From the NCBI RefSeq assembly GCF_048403405.1, contig NZ_CP183129.1: a stretch of 64,000 nucleotides of DNA; one strand, written 5' to 3'. This document shows positions 1 to 5,740 of this stretch, piece by piece. This DNA is from Escherichia coli (GTDB taxonomy: Bacteria > Pseudomonadota > Gammaproteobacteria > Enterobacterales > Enterobacteriaceae). Under the pieces are notes generated by a model. The model made no database searches and was not told where the DNA came from. It saw only the letters and a list, made by a program, of their open reading frames with translations. Position 1 is the first letter of the stretch. The number at the start of each line of letters is the position of its first letter. The translations under genes were made by a program, and so were the position numbers.

Positions 1-158
1 GGTGATAGAAATAACTCACCATCCAGAGTTGAGAATCTCGGGGTGGCGAGACGTACAGGGTTCTCAACACCGGAGAGCAAAGAATCCGGCCCGACCGAAG
101 TCGGCCCCGTACGCCCCGCCATAATTCTGACGCGAAAAAGACGTGGCAATACAGTACG

Positions 159-286
159 CACAAAAAAACCGCTTGCGCGGTTATGCGCTTTGCTCTGTAT
201 CGGGTTGAGAATCCCGGCACCCGTTTTATGAGGTGCAGCGGAAATGTAACCTGACCGATTGAGGCATGGCAAGCGGTTTTTTTGTG
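159..286. repeat. 18-bp perfect inverted repeat pair (CACAAAAAAACCGCTTGC at 159-176, GCAAGCGGTTTTTTTGTG at 269-286) flanking 92 bp
   Basis: Read directly from the sequence; the two arms are exact reverse complements. Confidence 0.7.
160..183 (-). terminator. Terminator-like hairpin on the minus strand (AACCGC-GCAA-GCGGTT followed by T7)
   Basis: 6-bp stem, GCAA loop and a run of 7 T on the minus strand, about 120 nt downstream of the 305..604 ORF. It lies inside an open minus-strand frame, so its function is uncertain. Confidence 0.35.
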
Positions 287-304
287 TGTGCATGTTCTGG
301 TTTC

Positions 305-604
305 TTACTGGTTCAGAAAAAAATCAAAAACGTTATCGATGCGTTGCAGCAGCTCTTGCTGCATTGCTTCCGGCGTTTCCGGTTCGCCAGGTGCCCCCAG
401 CGTTGCGCAGAAATCAGCGATTTCATGATGGAGCGTGAGGCGAATGGCAGGAGCCGTGGTTCTGGCGTGCTCCAGCTGATCCAGCAGTGCCAGCACAGCA
501 GACGGCGAGAGCATTGCGCGAAATGCCAGTAATTTTTGAGGCGTTGCCATTCGTTGCAGGGCAAATGCCAGTTCGCGTAGCTTCTGGTGGTTGATGGTGC
601 TCAT
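305..604 (-). CDS. hypothetical prophage early-operon protein (99 aa)
   Basis: ORF in the early operon; start overlaps the upstream ORF stop by 4 nt (coupled). No recognisable family. Confidence 0.55.
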   Translation of the reverse strand: MSTINHQKLRELAFALQRMATPQKLLAFRAMLSPSAVLALLDQLEHARTTAPAIRLTLHHEIADFCATLGAPGEPETPEAMQQELLQRIDNVFDFFLNQ

Positions 605-846
605 GCTCTGGCTTCCTTCAGTAGCTGGTTAAACATGTTGGTAAGTGGATTGCCGCACCCGAACGGCATCGGGTTTATCTGGTAAGAAAAGCGACCGCCT
701 GTTTTGCGCTCTTTTCTTATGACTGAACCGCTGCGCCAGAGTCGGCGTAACTCCGCATTAATGGCTGTGGTTGGGGTATTCAGTGCTGCGGCGATTTCTC
801 CACCGCTACACCCCGGATTGGCAGCGATATAATCCAGAATGGTCAT
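601..846 (-). CDS. hypothetical prophage early protein (81 aa), possible small DNA-binding protein
   Basis: ORF coupled by 4-nt overlaps on both sides; basic, helix-rich composition. DNA-binding function is a guess. Confidence 0.5.
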   Translation of the reverse strand: MTILDYIAANPGCSGGEIAAALNTPTTAINAELRRLWRSGSVIRKERKTGGRFSYQINPMPFGCGNPLTNMFNQLLKEARA

Positions 847-1046
847 CTGCGTGACTCCTGTACCTGTCGGATAAGGTTCACCTGCACCACATTCGTGGCG
901 CAGAAGTAAGTGCCGTCAGTGAGATAGATGTGATGTGCATCCTTTTCTGAACGGTGTTTGTCGATTGTGGTAATCAGGCGTTCGTCGACTTCGTATTCAC
1001 GTCCTCTGGAGGTAAAACGAACGACAGGAAAATGCTTAATTGCCAT
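843..1046 (-). CDS. hypothetical prophage early protein (67 aa)
   Basis: ORF preceded by a strong Shine-Dalgarno (AAGGAGG) on the minus strand at about 1052-1058. Confidence 0.55.
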   Translation of the reverse strand: MAIKHFPVVRFTSRGREYEVDERLITTIDKHRSEKDAHHIYLTDGTYFCATNVVQVNLIRQVQESRR

Positions 1047-1132
1047 TACGCCTCCTTGGCGTATGCGAATACCTCCGCGAATGCGGATTGTTTTTACATT
1101 TTCTTATTTAACCTGTGGTTTTATTTGCTCTG

Positions 1133-1246
1133 TTATTCGCCAGTGAAAAAGCGTTCAATCTTTTTTACTGAATGAATAATTCGCATAATCCCAATGGCGC
1201 AGGCCACAGAAATAATCAGAACAAGCCATGAGATAAATATACTCAT
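1133..1246 (-). CDS. small hydrophobic peptide (37 aa, MSIFISWLVLIISVACAIGIMRIIHSVKKIERFFTGE), single predicted transmembrane helix
   Basis: Not in the ORF track (<60 aa). Its ATG overlaps the TGA of the upstream 80-aa ORF as ATGA; hydrophobic N-terminal helix then a basic tail. Translated manually from the reverse complement. Confidence 0.45.
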   Translation of the reverse strand: MSIFISWLVLIISVACAIGIMRIIHSVKKIERFFTGE

Positions 1247-1485
1247 GCGATATTCCCCAGCTTATACGGTTCAATATGTTCCCCGCATTCTGCGGCACAG
1301 ATTAGCTCGGAAAGTTCGTTAAGTGCATCCAGATCATCAGCGTAAAAAGCCACGTCATACAGACTCCGGATTGCCCTGGTCAATGAGTCACGGGCTGCAC
1401 GTTCAGCATGAGAGCCTGATGCACTTAAGCGAAAATAAAAACGCTCAAGTGCTTTGTTGATGAGTGTTTTATATTCTTTGCCCAT
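1243..1485 (-). CDS. hypothetical prophage early protein (80 aa)
   Basis: ORF with an AGGGTG Shine-Dalgarno 5 nt upstream; 11-nt gap to the upstream gene. Confidence 0.5.
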   Translation of the reverse strand: MGKEYKTLINKALERFYFRLSASGSHAERAARDSLTRAIRSLYDVAFYADDLDALNELSELICAAECGEHIEPYKLGNIA

Positions 1486-1496
1486 TGCAACACCCT

Positions 1497-1784
1497 TTAA
1501 TCTGCTTTCTGAATTTCAGCTTCTGAATCCATGCAAATAATTTCGATATAGGGTTCATTGCCATTAGCCTGGCGCGCTTTTTCAGCTTTGCTAATGATTT
1601 CTCGTACGGTCTGGTACGGAAGTTCCACAAGCAGTCGCGTGCCGTTCAGATAAACGTAAGTGGCTTCGTCGGCTCCGTTTTTACCCGCCGGAGCCACTCC
1701 ATCAATAGCGGATGCGCGTAATAACAGTTCACCGCGAAAATCAATAAAACGGATAAATACACCTTGTGCATGGTCTTTGGTCAT
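1497..1784 (-). CDS. hypothetical prophage early protein (95 aa; track ORF 1497..1844 trimmed to the internal ATG)
   Basis: The ATG at 1784 has an AGGTG Shine-Dalgarno and avoids a 50-nt overlap with the upstream ORF. The longer start at 1844 is less likely. Confidence 0.5.
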   Translation of the reverse strand: MTKDHAQGVFIRFIDFRGELLLRASAIDGVAPAGKNGADEATYVYLNGTRLLVELPYQTVREIISKAEKARQANGNEPYIEIICMDSEAEIQKAD

Positions 1785-1794
1785 AAAGCACCTG

Positions 1795-2136
1795 TTATAA
1801 ATCAGCCTGTTTAATAAAACTTTGTCCGCGAAGCAGACGATCAACCGTGCGTAGTGCTTCGTATAATGTGAAATCCTGCCCGAACTGATTTTCGCCGCTG
1901 CTTAGAGCAAAAATGCGGTTTCCAGTAAACGGGTTGCGTGGGCATTTGTGGACCACGATTCCAGCTTTCTCAATCAGCCAGGCATGCTCGCCGATTTGTT
2001 TTACTGGGTAGCCATCCGGCGTTGCGTGTGTATCACTCAGGCTGTAGCGGATGTTGCTGCGTGATGCACTGGTAGCGAAACGATTAGCGTGACGTTCAGC
2101 ACCATTACGAAAGCGTGAATTACGTTGCTGTTTCAT
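1795..2136 (-). CDS. hypothetical prophage early protein (113 aa)
   Basis: ORF whose ATG sits 1 nt after the stop of the preceding small ORF (TAAcATG). Confidence 0.55.
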   Translation of the reverse strand: MKQQRNSRFRNGAERHANRFATSASRSNIRYSLSDTHATPDGYPVKQIGEHAWLIEKAGIVVHKCPRNPFTGNRIFALSSGENQFGQDFTLYEALRTVDRLLRGQSFIKQADL

Positions 2137-2137
2137 G

Positions 2138-2245
2138 TTAAAGACTCTGTACAGATTTAATTATTCCGGCATAGCGGCCGAACTCAAAATATTTGCGATT
2201 AAATCGCATCGCATTGTTTTCACGTTGTGCGGACTGCTGGTTCAT
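2138..2245 (-). CDS. small basic peptide (35 aa, MNQQSAQRENNAMRFNRKYFEFGRYAGIIKSVQSL)
   Basis: Not in the ORF track. Its ATG overlaps the TGA of the upstream hydrophobic peptide as ATGA, and its stop is 1 nt before the next gene's ATG. Confidence 0.4.
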   Translation of the reverse strand: MNQQSAQRENNAMRFNRKYFEFGRYAGIIKSVQSL

Positions 2246-2349
2246 TTTCGTTTGCCTCCGCACATGAGAATTACGCCGCTTAAGAGGTAACCGAAGTTAA
2301 TTGATAGTATTACAATTAACATAAGGTCCAATTTGTCCATGCCACACAT
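2242..2349 (-). CDS. small hydrophobic membrane peptide (35 aa, MCGMDKLDLMLIVILSINFGYLLSGVILMCGGKRK)
   Basis: Not in the ORF track. A GAGGG Shine-Dalgarno sits 6 nt upstream of the ATG at 2349 (alternative in-frame ATG at 2361 and 2340). One hydrophobic helix followed by a basic KRK tail. Confidence 0.45.
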   Translation of the reverse strand: MCGMDKLDLMLIVILSINFGYLLSGVILMCGGKRK

Positions 2350-2388
2350 AATTACCCTCATTGCAGTAGTTGTGGTTTATCAGGTTTC

Positions 2389-2595
2389 TCACCCGATAAA
2401 CCAGATAACAAACGCTATAAACATCGCCCCAATAGCTGCCGGGAAAAGCCCTTTGGTATAAGCGGCGATATATTCAATGCTGAGTTCAATAAAGCGTTCT
2501 TCATGTCCCGTTAACTTACGAAACAAATAGATCGCTATTACGCCTATCTCAATAAAAACAAGGGTCAGAATGGCGCTGATGATATGGCTGGTCAT
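2389..2595 (-). CDS. small predicted two-helix membrane protein (68 aa) immediately downstream of cox
   Basis: ORF starting 6 nt after the Cox stop; two hydrophobic segments separated by a charged loop. Confidence 0.55.
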   Translation of the reverse strand: MTSHIISAILTLVFIEIGVIAIYLFRKLTGHEERFIELSIEYIAAYTKGLFPAAIGAMFIAFVIWFIG

Positions 2596-2601
2596 TTATG
2601 A

Positions 2602-2889
2602 CTAAAGCCCCAGCCACAACAACCATGCATCGCGGCGTTCTTTCGGTTGCTCAAAAAACGCTTTGCGCATGCCTTCGTTAAATGCTGGCAGATATACCCA
2701 GTTTTCTGATGCACGCGTCTTTACTGAACCTGGTTTCACAAAGTCAATTGTCGGTAGCTTTGCTGCGTCAATCATGGTTCTGACTGTGGATTCCTTGCGG
2801 CCGATCATCTTGGCGAATAGTTGATATGGCACCGCTTCAAGTGGATATGGTGCTACCTGAATGAAGCCCCCAAGCTCTGATTCGCTCAT
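2602..2889 (-). CDS. P2 Cox-like protein (excisionase / early-promoter repressor), 95 aa
   Basis: Recognisable similarity to phage P2 Cox (e.g. WVYLPA and WL.WLGL motifs) and divergent position next to the C-like repressor. Confidence 0.8.
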   Translation of the reverse strand: MSESELGGFIQVAPYPLEAVPYQLFAKMIGRKESTVRTMIDAAKLPTIDFVKPGSVKTRASENWVYLPAFNEGMRKAFFEQPKERRDAWLLWLGL

Positions 2890-2911
2890 TGTGGTAATCT
2901 CCCTAATTCGT

Positions 2912-2947
2912 TCGAATGGCTCAAAATGGCTTATATCGGCTTATTTG
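2912..2947. promoter_or_regulatory. three 10-bp-phased direct repeats (GGCTCAAAAT, GGCTTATATC, GGCTTATTTG) in the C/cox intergenic region: candidate operators
   Basis: GGCT recurs at 2918, 2928 and 2938. P2-type C repressors are known to bind direct repeats, so these are plausible operators; this is not demonstrated. Confidence 0.4.
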
Positions 2948-3002
2948 AGTGTTTTTATGTTTGTGCCCGATGTGGCATGTTGCGATGGAGGATATGCCCG
3001 AT

Positions 3003-3323
3003 ATGGCATCTTTGTCAAGCATGGGTGAAAAATTTCGCCTGATTCGTGAAGCAGAAGGTATGACCCGCCAGGAGTTTGCGGATTGTGTTGGGCTGCCTTA
3101 TGGGACGGTAACTAACTATGAGGTGAGGGGGAAGCAAGTAACAGAGGGTGCCTTACTTAAGGTTACGAAACACCCTAAATTTAAGAAATATGCTTATTGG
3201 TTATCAACAGATGAAACGATGCCGGAGGTTGGGCAAATTTCTCCGGCTCTCTCTCTTGATGGTTCCTGCAATTCGGAGGGAGATCGTGTTTCAACCGAAA
3301 CAATCCAAAAATTATCCCGCTGA
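3003..3323 (+). CDS. P2 C-like immunity repressor (HTH), about 106 aa
   Basis: Track ORF 2949..3323 trimmed to the ATG at 3003 (GGAGGA Shine-Dalgarno upstream). HTH region and C-terminal tail resemble P2 C (GLPYGT.., KYAYWL.., GQISPAL). Confidence 0.8.
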   Translation: MASLSSMGEKFRLIREAEGMTRQEFADCVGLPYGTVTNYEVRGKQVTEGALLKVTKHPKFKKYAYWLSTDETMPEVGQISPALSLDGSCNSEGDRVSTETIQKLSR

Positions 3324-3419
3324 GGCCAGAAAACTGGTTAGACCTGCTTTTTGTCTGGTCTGATTATTGCTGGAAAGAGGCTGGAGAAATTGTAGAGCGG
3401 TTCATTGGAGGGCTTCGCA

Positions 3420-4424
3420 ATGTCGATTAAGAAGCTCGAAGATGGTCGTTATTTGCTGGACATCAGGCCGAACGGACGCAAGGGAAAGCGCGTGCGTAAG
3501 GTATTTGACAAAAAATCGGTAGCGGTGGCCACTGAACGCTACATCATGGCGAACGCTGAAAAGCGGGAATATATACAGGGCTACCGTGATCGTCGAACGC
3601 TAAATGATTTGCTTGAGTTGTGGTGGATGTATCACGGCCAGCACAGGCGTAAGGCAGAAGAAGACCGAAAACAACTGCGCAACATAATCAATGAGCTTGG
3701 CGCTGATATGCAGGCTGTGGATCTTGATAAGCTAAAAATTATCGCGTGGCGTTCTCAAAAGATAGCTGATGGATTGAAACCGTCATCTGCTAACAGATAC
3801 ATGAATCGGTTATCCGGAATGTTTACCGTACTGAAGAAAATAGGCCTCTGGGATGCAGAACATCCGGTAAGGGGAATTTCTATTCTTTATGTATCTCCAC
3901 GAGAAATGGCTTTCCTGTCCCAGAAGGAAGTGGCGTTATTGCTCGATACACTGGAGGGCGATTACTGGCGTGTTGCGCTTTTGTGTTTAAGCACGGGGGC
4001 GCGCTGGAGTGAAGCCTGTAAGCTTCGTGGTGAACAGATAGTTCATAACCGTGTAACGTTTCTTGAAACCAAAAATGGCCGAAAGAGAACAGTGCCAATT
4101 TCGCAGGCAGTTTGTGAGGCGATCAAAACCAGAGAAACAGGCGGCTTGTTTGAGGTGAAGTACCGGGAATTCTGCTTGGCGCTGAAAAGAGTTAAGCCCG
4201 ATTTGCCAAAAGGCCAGGCTGCACATGTGCTGCGGCATACGTTCGCCAGCCATTTTGTGATGAACGGAGGAAACATTATTGCGCTTCAGAAGATTCTTGG
4301 CCACGCAACCATTCAGCAAACAATGGCATATGCACATTTTGCACCGGATTACCTGCAGGATGCGGTGGCCCTTAATCCGCTGAAAGGTGGCGTGAGTGTC
4401 CACGCAGTGTCCACGGGGGATTAA
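3420..4424 (+). CDS. int: P2-family tyrosine integrase (334 aa)
   Basis: Strong similarity to P2 Int across its length (MSIKKLEDGRY.., LCLSTGARWSEA, IVHNRVTF, HVLRHTFASHF, YAHFAPDYLQDA). Start taken at the ATG at 3420, 7 nt after GGAGGG. Confidence 0.9.
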   Translation: MSIKKLEDGRYLLDIRPNGRKGKRVRKVFDKKSVAVATERYIMANAEKREYIQGYRDRRTLNDLLELWWMYHGQHRRKAEEDRKQLRNIINELGADMQAVDLDKLKIIAWRSQKIADGLKPSSANRYMNRLSGMFTVLKKIGLWDAEHPVRGISILYVSPREMAFLSQKEVALLLDTLEGDYWRVALLCLSTGARWSEACKLRGEQIVHNRVTFLETKNGRKRTVPISQAVCEAIKTRETGGLFEVKYREFCLALKRVKPDLPKGQAAHVLRHTFASHFVMNGGNIIALQKILGHATIQQTMAYAHFAPDYLQDAVALNPLKGGVSVHAVSTGD

Positions 4425-4451
4425 TTTTATATAGCCTGAAACGGCTTAAAG

Positions 4452-4486
4452 GGCGATACTGAATAACAATTTTTCAGTATTGCCCG
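4452..4486. repeat. imperfect 13-bp inverted repeat (GGGCGATACTGAA ... TTCAGTATTGCCC) in the int-pdxB junction
   Basis: Read from the sequence; one mismatch. Could be an int terminator or an att-associated site. Confidence 0.4.
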
Positions 4487-4582
4487 TCTAAATGGTTATG
4501 TTGTTATCTGTATGATTATGAATGTTTTTTCAGATTAAACAGCAGTTTGCAAATGGGCGTTTGTTAATAAAGGAGCCTTAGA

Positions 4583-5740
4583 TTGTCAGAGACTGAAAAA
4601 TGGTTAAAAATCCTTGTTGATGAAAATATGCCTTATGCCCGCGACTTATTTAGCCGTTTGGGTGAGGTGACCGCGGTTCCCGGGCGTCCAATTCCCGTGG
4701 CTCAACTGGCAGACGCGGATGCGATGATGGTGCGTTCGGTCACGAAAGTGAATGAATCTTTGCTGGCAGGAAAACCCATTAAATTTGTTGGCACTGCCAC
4801 CGCGGGGACCGACCATGTCGATGAAGCGTGGTTAAAGCAGGCGGGAATTGGTTTTTCCGCGGCACCTGGCTGTAATGCGATTGCGGTGGTGGAATATGTT
4901 TTCTCCTCACTGCTGATGCTTGCCGAACGCGATGGATTTTCACTGCACGAGCGTACCGTGGGGATCGTGGGCGTTGGTAACGTTGGTCGCCGTTTACAGG
5001 CGCGACTGGAAGCGTTAGGGATTACAACCTTGCTTTGCGATCCGCCCCGCGCCGACCGTGGGGATGAGGGGGATTTCCGCTCGCTGGATGAATTAGTTCA
5101 GCATGCGGATATTCTGACTTTCCATACGCCACTCTTTAAAGATGGTCCGTACAAAACGCTGCATCTGGCGGATGAAAAACTGATCCGCAGCCTGAAGCCG
5201 GGAGCGATTCTGATTAACGCCTGCCGTGGCGCAGTTGTCGATAATACCGCCCTGCTGACCTGCCTGAACGAAGGCCAGAAGTTAAGCGTAGTGCTGGATG
5301 TCTGGGAAGGCGAACCGGAACTTAACGTGGAATTGCTGAAAAAAGTGGATATCGGCACGCCGCATATCGCAGGCTATACCCTGGAAGGTAAAGCACGCGG
5401 TACTACGCAAGTGTTTGAAGCTTATAGCAAGTTTATTGGGCATGAACAGCACGTTGCGCTGGATACATTACTGCCCGCGCCAGAGTTTGGTCGCATTACG
5501 CTGCATGGCCCGCTCGATCAGCCAACGCTGAAAAGGCTGGTGCATTTGGTGTATGATGTGCGCCGCGATGACGCACCGCTGCGTAAAGTCGCCGGGATAC
5601 CGGGTGAGTTCGATAAACTGCGCAAAAACTATCTTGAGCGCCGTGAATGGTCATCTCTGTATGTGATTTGTGATGACGCCAGCGCGGCATCATTGCTGTG
5701 TAAACTGGGTTTTAACGCCGTTCATCATCCGGCACGTTAA
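4583..5740 (+). CDS. pdxB: erythronate-4-phosphate dehydrogenase
   Basis: Translation matches E. coli PdxB. The TTG at 4583 is 7 nt after an AGGAG Shine-Dalgarno; the exact start is uncertain. Confidence 0.93.

Follow-up and report, generated by a model that had tools for sequence, protein, structure and literature searches.

Organisation of the early region

Near the beginning of the window (the whole 64,000-nucleotide stretch of Escherichia coli DNA that was analysed), six open reading frames of 113, 95, 80, 67, 81 and 99 aa (ORF1 to ORF6) follow one another on the minus strand, exactly at the positions given in a preliminary description of the sequence, and RefSeq/PGAP calls the same six on an identical E. 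coli chromosome. They lie in a P88-like Xuanwuvirus prophage (Peduoviridae, P2 family) integrated beside pdxB, and they are listed with the neighbouring features in Table 1.

Table 1. Features of the early region and of the adjoining immunity module, in window coordinates
Feature	Position	Strand	Evidence
C4-family antisense RNA gene (P1 c4 / P4 CI clan)	39-126	-	RF01695, 78.5 bits (gathering score 45)
isrK-family sRNA gene	162-236	-	RF01394, 63.1 bits (gathering score 50)
ORF6, 99 aa, two-module helical protein	305-604	-	phrog_4144, phrog_250, phrog_368
ORF5, 81 aa, predicted minimal winged helix-turn-helix	601-846	-	MarR_2 E 8e-5, HTH_24 E 3e-4; phrog_1687
ORF4, 67 aa	843-1046	-	phrog_3459 E 1.3e-45; no Pfam
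86-nt spacer, insertion hot spot 1, empty here	1047-1132		
Single-pass membrane peptide, 37 aa	1133-1246	-	P88 gp07 "membrane protein"; PGAP CDS
ORF3, 80 aa, DUF4754	1243-1485	-	PF15946 E 6.5e-52, model 1-80/80
ORF2, 95 aa	1497-1784	-	phrog_3800 E 1.2e-60; no Pfam
ORF1, 113 aa, DUF4761	1795-2136	-	PF15958 E 2.6e-67, model 1-105/105; phrog_2492
Leader ORF, 35 aa	2138-2245	-	sequence; gp43 in P88_4B11
Predicted two-helix membrane protein, 68 aa	2389-2595	-	phrog_14475 E 2.3e-41; annotated in P88_4B11 and by PGAP
cox, 95 aa, first gene of the early operon	2602-2889	-	phrog_272 Cox-like excisionase/repressor, E 1.5e-38
Putative Pe-like early promoter, TTGACA-18-TATCCT, between C and cox	2989-3018	-	consensus scan, 10/12 matches
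C-type immunity repressor gene	3003-3323	+	phrog_147; PGAP CDS
Tyrosine integrase gene	3420-4424	+	prophage end adjoining pdxB (4583-5740)

The six genes had been described as coupled by 4-nt overlaps or gaps of about 10 nt. This is the case for ORF1/ORF2 (10 nt), ORF2/ORF3 (11 nt) and, by ATGA overlaps of 4 nt each, ORF4/ORF5 and ORF5/ORF6, but ORF3 and ORF4 are 196 nt apart, an interval filled by the gene for a 37-aa membrane peptide, missed in the first reading, and an 86-nt spacer. Similarly, the run lies downstream of cox as had been reported, but does not adjoin it, the 68-aa and 35-aa ORFs, both missed in the first reading, being placed between them.

All six ORFs are genuine genes under purifying selection and not chance reading frames, since their pN/pS values are 0.07, 0.25, 0.16, 0.15, 0.14 and 0.21 for ORF1 to ORF6, respectively (21-39 other alleles, 82 related loci). 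The ORFs are short and four of the six carry only "hypothetical" or DUF names, which might suggest that some of them are spurious or decaying frames of a defective prophage; these low values across dozens of alleles effectively refute this idea, which is also at odds with the full-length conservation of the genes in the isolated plaque-forming phages P88, PhiSM and PhiR44_2 (PMC6456863) and with the confident AF2 folds of ORF2 to ORF5, and we consider it virtually excluded.

Lineage and distribution

In Megablast comparisons, the DNA is 98.3% identical to phage PhiR44_2, 96.8% to P88_4B11 and 91.6% to P88, and its annotation agrees gene for gene with P88, P88_4B11 and PGAP. The same early genes are found in the same order in P88 (NC_026014, gp04-gp10; protein identity 77-100%) and in PhiR44_2 (PV340564), and they are also those of Xuanwuvirus P88_4B11 (NC_049391; protein identity 88-100%). 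The region is accordingly a Xuanwuvirus early operon, in which orthologues of P88 gp04-gp10 follow cox in the same order and precede the GPA replication gene. None of the differences from these phages is essential; P88 has another cox/C immunity module and, behind ORF6 and ahead of the RNA block, two additional cargo genes, one for a membrane protein and one for a lipoprotein of SPFH type.

Many E. coli chromosomes carry the window with 100% identity, the early region is matched in 1464 of 5426 complete E. coli genomes (about one quarter) and each exact protein of the six is found on at least 1000 public contigs. The six families are tiny and their range is limited to Enterobacteriaceae; together they give only 160 matches at E <= 1e-3 among 1.84 billion representative proteins, and DUF4761 is present in only 2 of about 100,000 species representatives. 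Full-length PHROG families exist for all six ORFs. The statement that none has a recognisable family can be kept for ORF2 and ORF4, which have PHROG families only, but not for ORF1 (DUF4761), ORF3 (DUF4754), ORF5 (MarR_2/HTH_24) or ORF6 (Ea22 N-terminus). A literature search for DUF4761, DUF4754 and the RefSeq accessions of these proteins found no mention of them. All six genes are already on record, as hypothetical or DUF proteins, and the original observation is thus correct but ordinary.

Promoter and immunity module

The proposal that these genes belong to the early operon of a P2-family prophage is borne out by the sequences upstream, where the integrase gene, C, a divergent cox (56% identical to P2 Cox at the protein level) and a Pe-like promoter are all present. 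The position of this promoter agrees with that of P2 Pe, by analogy with which it would drive the operon. The 68-aa membrane protein encoded behind cox (pN/pS 0.34) occurs only in loci with this cox type and is part of a swappable immunity module. The 35-aa leader ORF, the stop of which lies 1 nt ahead of the ATG of ORF1, is weakly constrained (pN/pS 0.46) and is missing from other immunity types; ORF1 here has no evident Shine-Dalgarno sequence. The sequence 5' of ORF1 switches completely with the immunity module, the recombination junction being the ORF1 start codon. An internal regulated promoter 5' of ORF1, suggested by the palindrome TGCGAT-N8-ATCGCA (2194-2213) beside promoter-like hexamers, did not hold up as a conserved feature because the sequence that contains it is replaced in this way.

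Comparison with P2 and 186

P2 (cox-orf78-B-orf80-orf81-orf82-orf83-A) belongs to the same family, has the same Pe/cox start and the same slot between the immunity switch and the GPA gene, and fills this slot likewise with a run of small overlapping ORFs, none of which is homologous to those described here. In phage 186 (apl-cII-fil-dhr), small early proteins are also encoded directly past the excisionase/repressor gene; according to the annotation of the 186 record, two of these act on the host, Fil by blocking division and Dhr by blocking host replication. This likeness is one of position and size only, with no sequence or profile similarity.

By eye, none of the six ORFs had been assignable to P2 B/orf80-83 or 186 cII/fil/dhr, and database methods agree (no tblastn match below E = 0.1; hhalign at most 7%). 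More broadly, no relation to the six ORFs was found for orf78, B, orf80/DUF2732, orf81, orf82/DksA-type zinc finger, orf83/DUF5405 and orf91/DUF3850 of P2 and Wphi (no tblastn match at E < 0.1; hhalign of family alignments 7% at most), nor for the 186-type cII, Fil, Dhr and CP81 exonuclease and their PSP3 and Fels-2 homologues (tblastn; best hhalign 1.4%). Far from mapping cleanly to characterised early proteins of the P2 family, the ORFs map only to uncharacterised genes of the P88 lineage.

Conserved core and replaceable cargo

Using 80 IMG/VR loci and distant P2-family operons (L089-L093), we could separate the block into two layers, a conserved core and, behind it, a region of swappable cargo in which there are two insertion hot spots. 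The core of the lineage is made of DUF4761 (ORF1), DUF4754 (ORF3) and the coupled 37-aa membrane peptide. ORF1, found in 80 of 80 related loci and in the distant P2-family operons, is the most constrained gene and combines a basic, invariant Arg-rich N-terminal segment with a beta-rich core and a C-terminal helix (AF2 confidence low). This N-terminus prompted the idea of a lambda-N-like antiterminator, which we offer as an idea only, the AF2 helix at this place having low confidence. ORF3 is predicted to form three helices (pLDDT 80-89), and the ATG of the membrane peptide (MSIFISWLVLIISVACAIGIMRIIHSVKKIERFFTGE; pN/pS 0.15) overlaps its stop codon (ATGA), so that the two are translationally coupled; in distant relatives a coupled 41-aa peptide always comes after ORF3.

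The position of this core, at the place of orf78 and B directly past the immunity module, raises the question of whether its DUF4761 and DUF4754 proteins replace P2 B (DnaB-loading or lagging-strand function) for the larger GPA-type initiator of the lineage. No B homologue is found in the early region of the lineage, the core co-occurs with a GPA of 836-946 aa and its 129-138-aa partner, and the low pN/pS of ORF1 could also be explained by an essential part in replication or regulation. On the other hand, the core has no sequence or profile similarity to B, 186-type phages also do without B, which is therefore not universally needed, two RNA genes and a terminator separate the replication module from the block, and co-occurrence with GPA may reflect common descent; a replication accessory is, in our opinion, a very unlikely reading.

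The cargo comprises ORF4, ORF5 and ORF6 here, and Dam methylase, 3'-5' exonuclease, ParE-like, DUF4406 or SPFH/lipoprotein genes in relatives. The spacer of hot spot 1 measures about 90-100 nt in 36 of the 78 related loci that could be scored. In the remaining 42 it extends over 356-805 nt and carries an additional gene of 105 aa (phrog_21900) or 136-138 aa (phrog_9338), except in two loci that have two ORFs of 122 and 109 aa instead.

Small beta proteins

ORF2 (106 relatives, all enterobacterial) is a variable slot flanked by the two DUF genes, and ORF4, which has a strong Shine-Dalgarno sequence (AAGGAGG), is found at another place within the cargo region in L092. The AF2 model of ORF2 has five strands, a long helix and one more strand (pLDDT 85-90) and that of ORF4 is all-beta with five strands (pLDDT 89-93). 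Neither predicted fold gave a significant structural match in fold libraries, and both are new-looking small beta folds, modelled with confidence. Their predicted strand order is the same (b1-b2-turn-b3-b4-b5), they have in common the motif hhRF-x2-4-G...I...HIYL-x-G, and their hhalign score of 17.6 was reached in 3 of 200 column shuffles, all of which is only suggestive of paralogy.

The first reading pointed to early regions of P2-like phages as a known reservoir of host-manipulation and anti-defence genes. If the block were such an anti-defence island, at least one of its small proteins would be an early-expressed inhibitor of host immunity (for example restriction, abortive infection or retrons), the variable ORF2, ORF4 and ORF6 being the best candidates. 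The place in the early operon, the small size and very narrow taxonomic range of the proteins, the mosaic alleles and two insertion hot spots are all consistent with this, as are the compact, confidently predicted folds of ORF2 and ORF4 without known relatives and the Dam methylase in the same cargo region of relatives, Dam methylation being a classic route of restriction evasion. However, no named anti-defence family was matched in Pfam or PHROGs, no significant match was obtained in NCBIfam, PDB sequences, fold libraries or PADLOC (the models of which are for defence, not anti-defence), and ORF1, ORF3 and the peptide are an invariant core of the lineage rather than shuffled cargo. We hold this explanation to be unlikely, although less so than a replacement of B. 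A similarly modest chance is given to a bolder scenario, in which ORF2 and ORF4 have diverged from a single, undescribed small beta domain that is spread through the early operons of enterobacterial P2-family prophages. This domain, or the invariant triad of DUF4761, DUF4754 and membrane peptide, would then be a novel early-acting inhibitor of the host, directed at cell division, replication or an immune system and similar in function to 186 Fil/Dhr or to anti-defence proteins.

ORF5 and ORF6

The AF2 model of ORF5 has the topology H-H-H-E-E-H (pLDDT about 84), and its top 50 Foldseek matches in the PDB are almost all winged helix-turn-helix regulators of ArsR/SmtB/MarR type (probability 1.00, E 6.5e-3 or weaker, the E-values being weak because the query was a six-domain chain). 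Predicted topology, profiles and Foldseek thus agree in placing ORF5 in the winged helix-turn-helix DNA-binding superfamily. It was not retained as a member of the MarR family proper: it has 81 aa compared with about 140 aa, only the winged-helix part is matched (model 9-60/61) and, where MarR has dimerisation helices, ORF5 has a family-specific C-terminal helix motif, PFGCxNxLTxMFNQLLxExR, which is kept in relatives of 34-42% identity. ORF5 is missing from about 8 of 80 related loci. As phrog_19053 spans both ORF4 and ORF5, we also considered a split or fused protein but found no support for it, the ORF5 relatives of 150-160 aa being tandem winged-helix proteins and not ORF4-ORF5 fusions.

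ORF6 (identity among loci 49-100%; AF2 model of low confidence) is made of an Ea22-type N-terminal module (1-48) and a separately shuffled C-terminal module (49-99), each of which occurs alone elsewhere. Its residues 1-45 are 45% identical to residues 1-45 of lambda Ea22 (E 8e-6), the only part that matches; they also match phrog_250 and phrog_368. The Pfam model Ead_Ea22 (PF13935) stays below significance (E 0.71). Ea22, a protein of the lambda exo-xis region, is pro-lysogenic and its C-terminal alpha-beta domain has been solved by NMR (PMC7093339, PMC10834534). ORF6 and Ea22 are both very early, non-essential, mosaic proteins, but ORF6 has 99 aa against 182 aa and is without the coiled coil and the C-terminal alpha-beta domain of Ea22.

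RNA genes closing the block

The block ends not in a further ORF but in two RNA genes, isrK and C4, which had been missed in the first reading. The isrK gene has an intrinsic terminator (182-167, followed by a U run), which is the single strong one that the scan found on the minus strand; none was detected on that strand between the Pe-like promoter/cox and this one. The positions of isrK and of C4 are conserved in five related loci, and in related loci the GPA replication gene and a gene of Derepression (PF25738) or Ash-like type lie downstream of C4. The annotated P2 record shows neither an isrK/C4 pair nor a Derepression gene at this point. A seventh coupled ORF running from 293 off the window, corresponding to the 205-aa "transcriptional regulator" gp51 of P88_4B11, was rejected: isrK and C4 occupy this stretch, PGAP has no CDS there, and the translation reaches only 75% identity, against about 97% for the DNA.

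RNAs of the isrK/C4 families followed by an antirepressor-type gene are also known from P1 immI (c4-icd-ant), P4 CI RNA immunity and Gifsy-1 isrK-anrP (PMC4825925), but here, unlike in those systems, they are part of an early operon of P2 type and precede the GPA replication gene. This comparison bears on the RNA block and not on the six ORFs.

Proposed role of the block

The reading that we favour, and consider probable, is that the early lytic operon of a P88-like prophage begins with an accessory block, which the six ORFs make up, with swappable cargo behind the core. The block sits downstream of the putative Pe-like promoter and cox, where P2 has orf78-B-orf80-83 and 186 has cII-fil-dhr. 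If P2 and 186 are a guide, its genes would be silent in the lysogen, where C would repress Pe, and would be expressed together with Cox upon infection or induction, partly via translational coupling. Tuning of the lysis-lysogeny decision and early takeover of host physiology would then be its most likely role; building the replisome, given that the genes for GPA and its partner come only after the RNA block, or protecting the lysogen appear less likely.

Roles for single proteins can be suggested only tentatively. ORF5 could be a small DNA-binding regulator, and ORF6 might act like Ea22 through the N-terminal module common to both. ORF3 and the membrane peptide might form a membrane-directed pair with a role analogous to 186 Fil or lambda Kil, the invariant Arg-rich N-terminus of ORF1 may bind nucleic acid or a partner, and ORF2 and ORF4 might use their small beta domains to bind proteins of the host. 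For ORF3, the membrane peptide and the two beta proteins, 186 Fil/Dhr offers the closest functional parallel, though one of position and size only.

This early region is common to about a quarter of complete E. coli genomes and none of its small early genes has an assigned role. If the core or the small beta proteins were host-takeover or anti-defence factors, this would explain how a very common P2-family lineage starts its lytic programme without the functions of P2 B or of 186 cII, fil and dhr.

Organisation of the early operon

The integrase, followed by the host gene pdxB, and the C repressor, which lies upstream of the early run, are arranged such that the window must begin within a prophage whose early operon reads leftwards (Table). 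The six minus-strand ORFs of the preliminary description, ORF1 to ORF6, are present with exactly the lengths reported. They had been thought to be joined throughout by 4-nt overlaps or gaps of about 10 nt, and this is the case at four junctions, with gaps of 10 nt (ORF1/ORF2) and 11 nt (ORF2/ORF3) and ATGA overlaps of 4 nt (ORF4/ORF5 and ORF5/ORF6). ORF3 and ORF4 are separated by 196 nt, an interval that contains a further gene encoding a 37-aa single-pass membrane peptide (MSIFISWLVLIISVACAIGIMRIIHSVKKIERFFTGE), the ATG of which overlaps the ORF3 stop codon (ATGA) and which is followed by an 86-nt spacer, a strong Shine-Dalgarno sequence and ORF4. On its plus strand the spacer contains a hairpin and T run resembling a terminator, which may be there by chance or may serve to end antisense transcription.

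The run was also said to follow cox; it does not adjoin it, as genes for a 68-aa two-helix membrane protein and a 35-aa ORF lie in between. No Shine-Dalgarno sequence is visible before ORF1 here, and its start is separated by 1 nt from the stop codon of the 35-aa ORF, an arrangement that points to coupled translation of the two.

Table. Features of the early operon and of compared loci (window coordinates unless a locus is named)
Feature	Coordinates	Strand	Product	pN/pS	Pfam or Rfam match	Predicted structure (pLDDT)
Integrase	3420-4424	+				
C repressor	3003-3323	+				
cox	2889-2602	minus				
Membrane protein	2595-2389	minus	68 aa			
Small ORF	2245-2138	minus	35 aa			
ORF1	2136-1795	minus	113 aa	0.07	DUF4761, E 2.6e-67	(low)
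ORF2	1784-1497	minus	95 aa	0.25	none	five strands, 18-residue helix, one strand (85-90)
ORF3	1485-1243	minus	80 aa	0.16	DUF4754, E 6.5e-52	three helices (80-89)
Membrane peptide	1246-1133	minus	37 aa	0.15		
Hot spot, peptide/ORF4	1047-1132					
Hairpin	1074-1087	+				
ORF4	1046-843	minus	67 aa	0.15	none	five strands, all beta (89-93)
ORF5	846-601	minus	81 aa	0.14	MarR_2, E 8e-5; HTH_24, E 3e-4	winged helix, C-terminal helix (~84)
ORF6	604-305	minus	99 aa	0.21	Ead_Ea22, E 0.71 (not significant)	(low)
Hot spot, ORF6/RNA	237-304					
isrK	236-162	minus	RNA		63.1 bits (gathering score 50)	
Intrinsic terminator	182-167	minus				
C4 antisense RNA	126-39	minus	RNA		78.5 bits (gathering score 45)	
isrK + C4 pair	39-236; L088 8039-8236; L001 5027-5224; L091 5873-6070; L092 7128-7325; L093 2291-2479					
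gp51 of P88_4B11	1-293; L002 3664-4281	minus (window)	205 aa			
Distant small peptide	L091 3235-3360; L092 3368-3493		41 aa			
ParM, partition protein	L088 3098-4376					

The six ORFs and the peptide are real genes. Their pN/pS ratios, calculated for the window allele against 21-39 other gapless alleles drawn from 82 related loci, are low, the comparisons being phylogenetically non-independent and the signal large; PGAP calls the same seven CDSs in an identical chromosome, and the exact sequence of each protein is found on at least 1000 public contigs.

Protein families and comparison with P2 and 186

That none of the ORFs belongs to a recognisable family proved half wrong. In a single Pfam scan of the concatenated proteins, ORF1, ORF3 and ORF5 matched known families, while ORF2 and ORF4 had no match and that of ORF6 was below significance. 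All six have a full-length PHROG family, of unknown function in five; the largely full-length match of ORF5, phrog_19053, is also of unknown function, and its further matches (phrog_1687, phrog_1324 and phrog_13786) are transcription-regulator families. By direct comparison, residues 1-45 of ORF6 are 45% identical to residues 1-45 of lambda Ea22 (E 8e-6), with no match in Ea22 beyond them. In Ea22, an early protein that promotes lysogeny, the N-terminal module is accompanied by a coiled coil and a C-terminal domain (PMC7093339, PMC10834534), whereas ORF6 has this module only. Searches of NCBIfam, PADLOC and PDB sequences yielded no significant match. No paper mentioning DUF4761, DUF4754 or the RefSeq accessions was found in a literature search.

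By contrast, the statement that the ORFs cannot be assigned to P2 B/orf80-83 or 186 cII/fil/dhr was borne out by two methods. Using tblastn, neither the six ORFs nor the small ORFs matched the early regions of P2, 186, PSP3, Wphi and Fels-2 below E = 0.1, while cox was 56% identical to P2 cox and the P88 controls were recovered at 77-100%. Using hhalign, no ORF family reached a probability above 7% against alignments built for P2 orf78, B, orf80, orf81, orf82, orf83 and orf91, for 186 cII, fil, dhr and CP81 and for three Fels-2/PSP3 orphans.

The six families are lineage-restricted. When the six proteins were concatenated and searched exhaustively with phmmer against 1.84 billion representative proteins, only 160 matches, many of which are fragments, were obtained for the whole set at E <= 1e-3. 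ORF2 has 106 relatives in an index of 5.8 billion proteins, with identity down to 52%, and all the named ones come from Escherichia, Citrobacter or Salmonella. The search with the DUF4761 profile covered about 100,000 species, each represented by one genome, and used two peptide patterns, so that the two loci it gave, in Escherichia albertii and in one metagenome bin, are a lower bound. A 4-kb contig binned into a metagenome-assembled genome labelled Collinsella sp. (L094, JAIJJM010000267.1) carries an 81%-identical DUF4761 gene and is probably a mis-binned enterobacterial prophage fragment.

Predicted structures

All six proteins were modelled as one chain with Gly-Ser linkers, using joined homologues as alignment rows, and ORF2 and ORF4 were modelled together in a second prediction. 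With Foldseek, the six-domain model matched only ArsR/SmtB/MarR proteins in the PDB, corresponding to ORF5; in AFDB50 the uncharacterised enterobacterial relatives of the proteins themselves were recovered and, beyond these, only weak tandem GRAM/PH matches and DUF2724, of which the source may be either ORF2 or ORF4. ORF4 and residues 8-53 of ORF2 agree in the predicted order of their strands and can be aligned in register, with an hhalign score of 17.6 that was equalled by 3 of 200 column shuffles, which suggests that the two may be of common origin.

Conserved core and cargo

The order ORF1-ORF2-ORF3-peptide-ORF4 is kept in 80 IMG/VR loci whatever the immunity module (the C/cox switch region), many of these having a different cox and lacking the 68-aa and 35-aa genes; the recombination junction with this module is the ORF1 start codon. 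The 68-aa protein and one or two 35-aa ORFs (window 2138-2595) travel with this cox/C type and are absent from other immunity types. ORF5 occurs as two alleles (~77% and ~100% identity) and is missing in about 8 of the 80 loci, and ORF6 identity ranges from 49 to 100%.

Insertions in these relatives (L008-L087) fall at two hot spots, both empty in this prophage. The peptide/ORF4 spacer measures ~90-100 nt in 36 loci, as here. In 42 others it is lengthened to 356-805 nt by one extra gene, of 105 aa (phrog_21900) or 136-138 aa (phrog_9338), both families being of unknown function, or, in two cases, by two ORFs encoding 122 and 109 aa. The ORF6/RNA junction spans 15-25 nt in 36 of the loci and 579-1290 nt in all others, and in phage P88 it carries genes for a membrane protein and an SPFH-type lipoprotein.

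At 40-50% identity, the more distant relatives again lie in P2-family early operons, with the order int, C, cox, (x), DUF4761, (x), DUF4754, a coupled 41-aa peptide and then variable genes (Rv2179c-like exonuclease, ParE-like protein, Dam methylase, DUF4406 and an ORF4 relative), followed by a Derepression (PF25738) or Ash-like gene, a 137-aa protein and the replication gene GPA. The pairing of DUF4754 with a small peptide is kept even in 40%-identical relatives. Given the order kept in relatives and the variable genes downstream, the block is a conserved core (ORF1, ORF3 and the peptide) with a cargo region, ORF2 being a variable slot inside the core. An anti-defence role for the variable members, for which P2-like early regions had been cited as a reservoir, has no direct support here and is a less likely reading.

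RNA genes ending the run

Directly after ORF6, on the same strand, lie genes for an isrK-family sRNA and a C4 antisense RNA, with an intrinsic terminator at the isrK end that is the only strong one on the minus strand of the region. The pair recurs at this position in five other loci, distant ones included, back to back between accessory genes and replication module. It is closely followed by a Derepression (P4 epsilon-like, PF25738) or Ash-like gene, so that this P2-family lineage seems to have a P1/P4-style antirepressor module under RNA control in addition to its C/Cox switch; the downstream partner gene falls outside the window. The C4 family belongs to the P1 c4/P4 CI clan. Since both RNA genes occupy the stretch, the 'transcriptional regulator' gp51 of P88_4B11, drawn across them, is probably mis-started or spurious; PGAP calls no CDS there. 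The N-terminal parts of gp51 and of the Phage_ASH-like ORF of L093, which also crosses the pair, are probably untranslated.

Possible roles and distribution in E. coli

The run is a tightly packed, partly translationally coupled unit on one strand, from a Pe-like promoter and cox to the isrK terminator. By analogy with P2 and 186, C would keep it silent in the lysogen, and its expression would begin together with that of Cox as lytic growth sets in. Its proteins do not include the replication initiator, encoded further downstream; that the core encodes replication accessory proteins is a weaker alternative. Nor are they probably lysogen-protecting genes, and we take them to be early accessory functions, developmental-choice regulators and host modulators. 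Tentatively, ORF5 would be a small regulator that binds DNA and has a C-terminal helix (PFGCxNxLTxMFNQLL) peculiar to its family, and ORF6 an Ea22-like module protein; ORF3 and the peptide could form a membrane-directed pair with a role analogous to 186 Fil or lambda Kil; the invariant arginine-rich N-terminus of ORF1 might bind nucleic acid or a partner, and ORF2 and ORF4 might be small beta-domain binders of host proteins.

By megablast, window 1-4500 is closest to Escherichia phage PhiR44_2 (98.3% identity), Xuanwuvirus P88_4B11 (96.8%), Citrobacter phage PhiSM (92.9%) and P88 (91.6%), and the annotations of P88 and P88_4B11 list these genes in the same order. To the left of the window, as seen in the identical strain CRE1540, the operon runs on with genes for, in order, a 76-aa protein, a 129-aa protein, a 946-aa GPA-type replication endonuclease, ParM and a partition protein. 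ParM and the plasmid-partition protein stand beside the replication gene, as in P88, which is unusual for an integrated P2-family phage.

The preliminary description was thus largely correct, but overlooked one gene and did not give the run its true limits. Public annotation of phages and bacteria already lists the genes as DUF or hypothetical proteins, and the finding is ordinary in this sense. The region is 100% identical in many complete E. coli genomes, with some match in 1464 of 5426 and coverage of at least 80% in 284, and it is because this lineage is so common in E. coli that its early genes are of modest interest.
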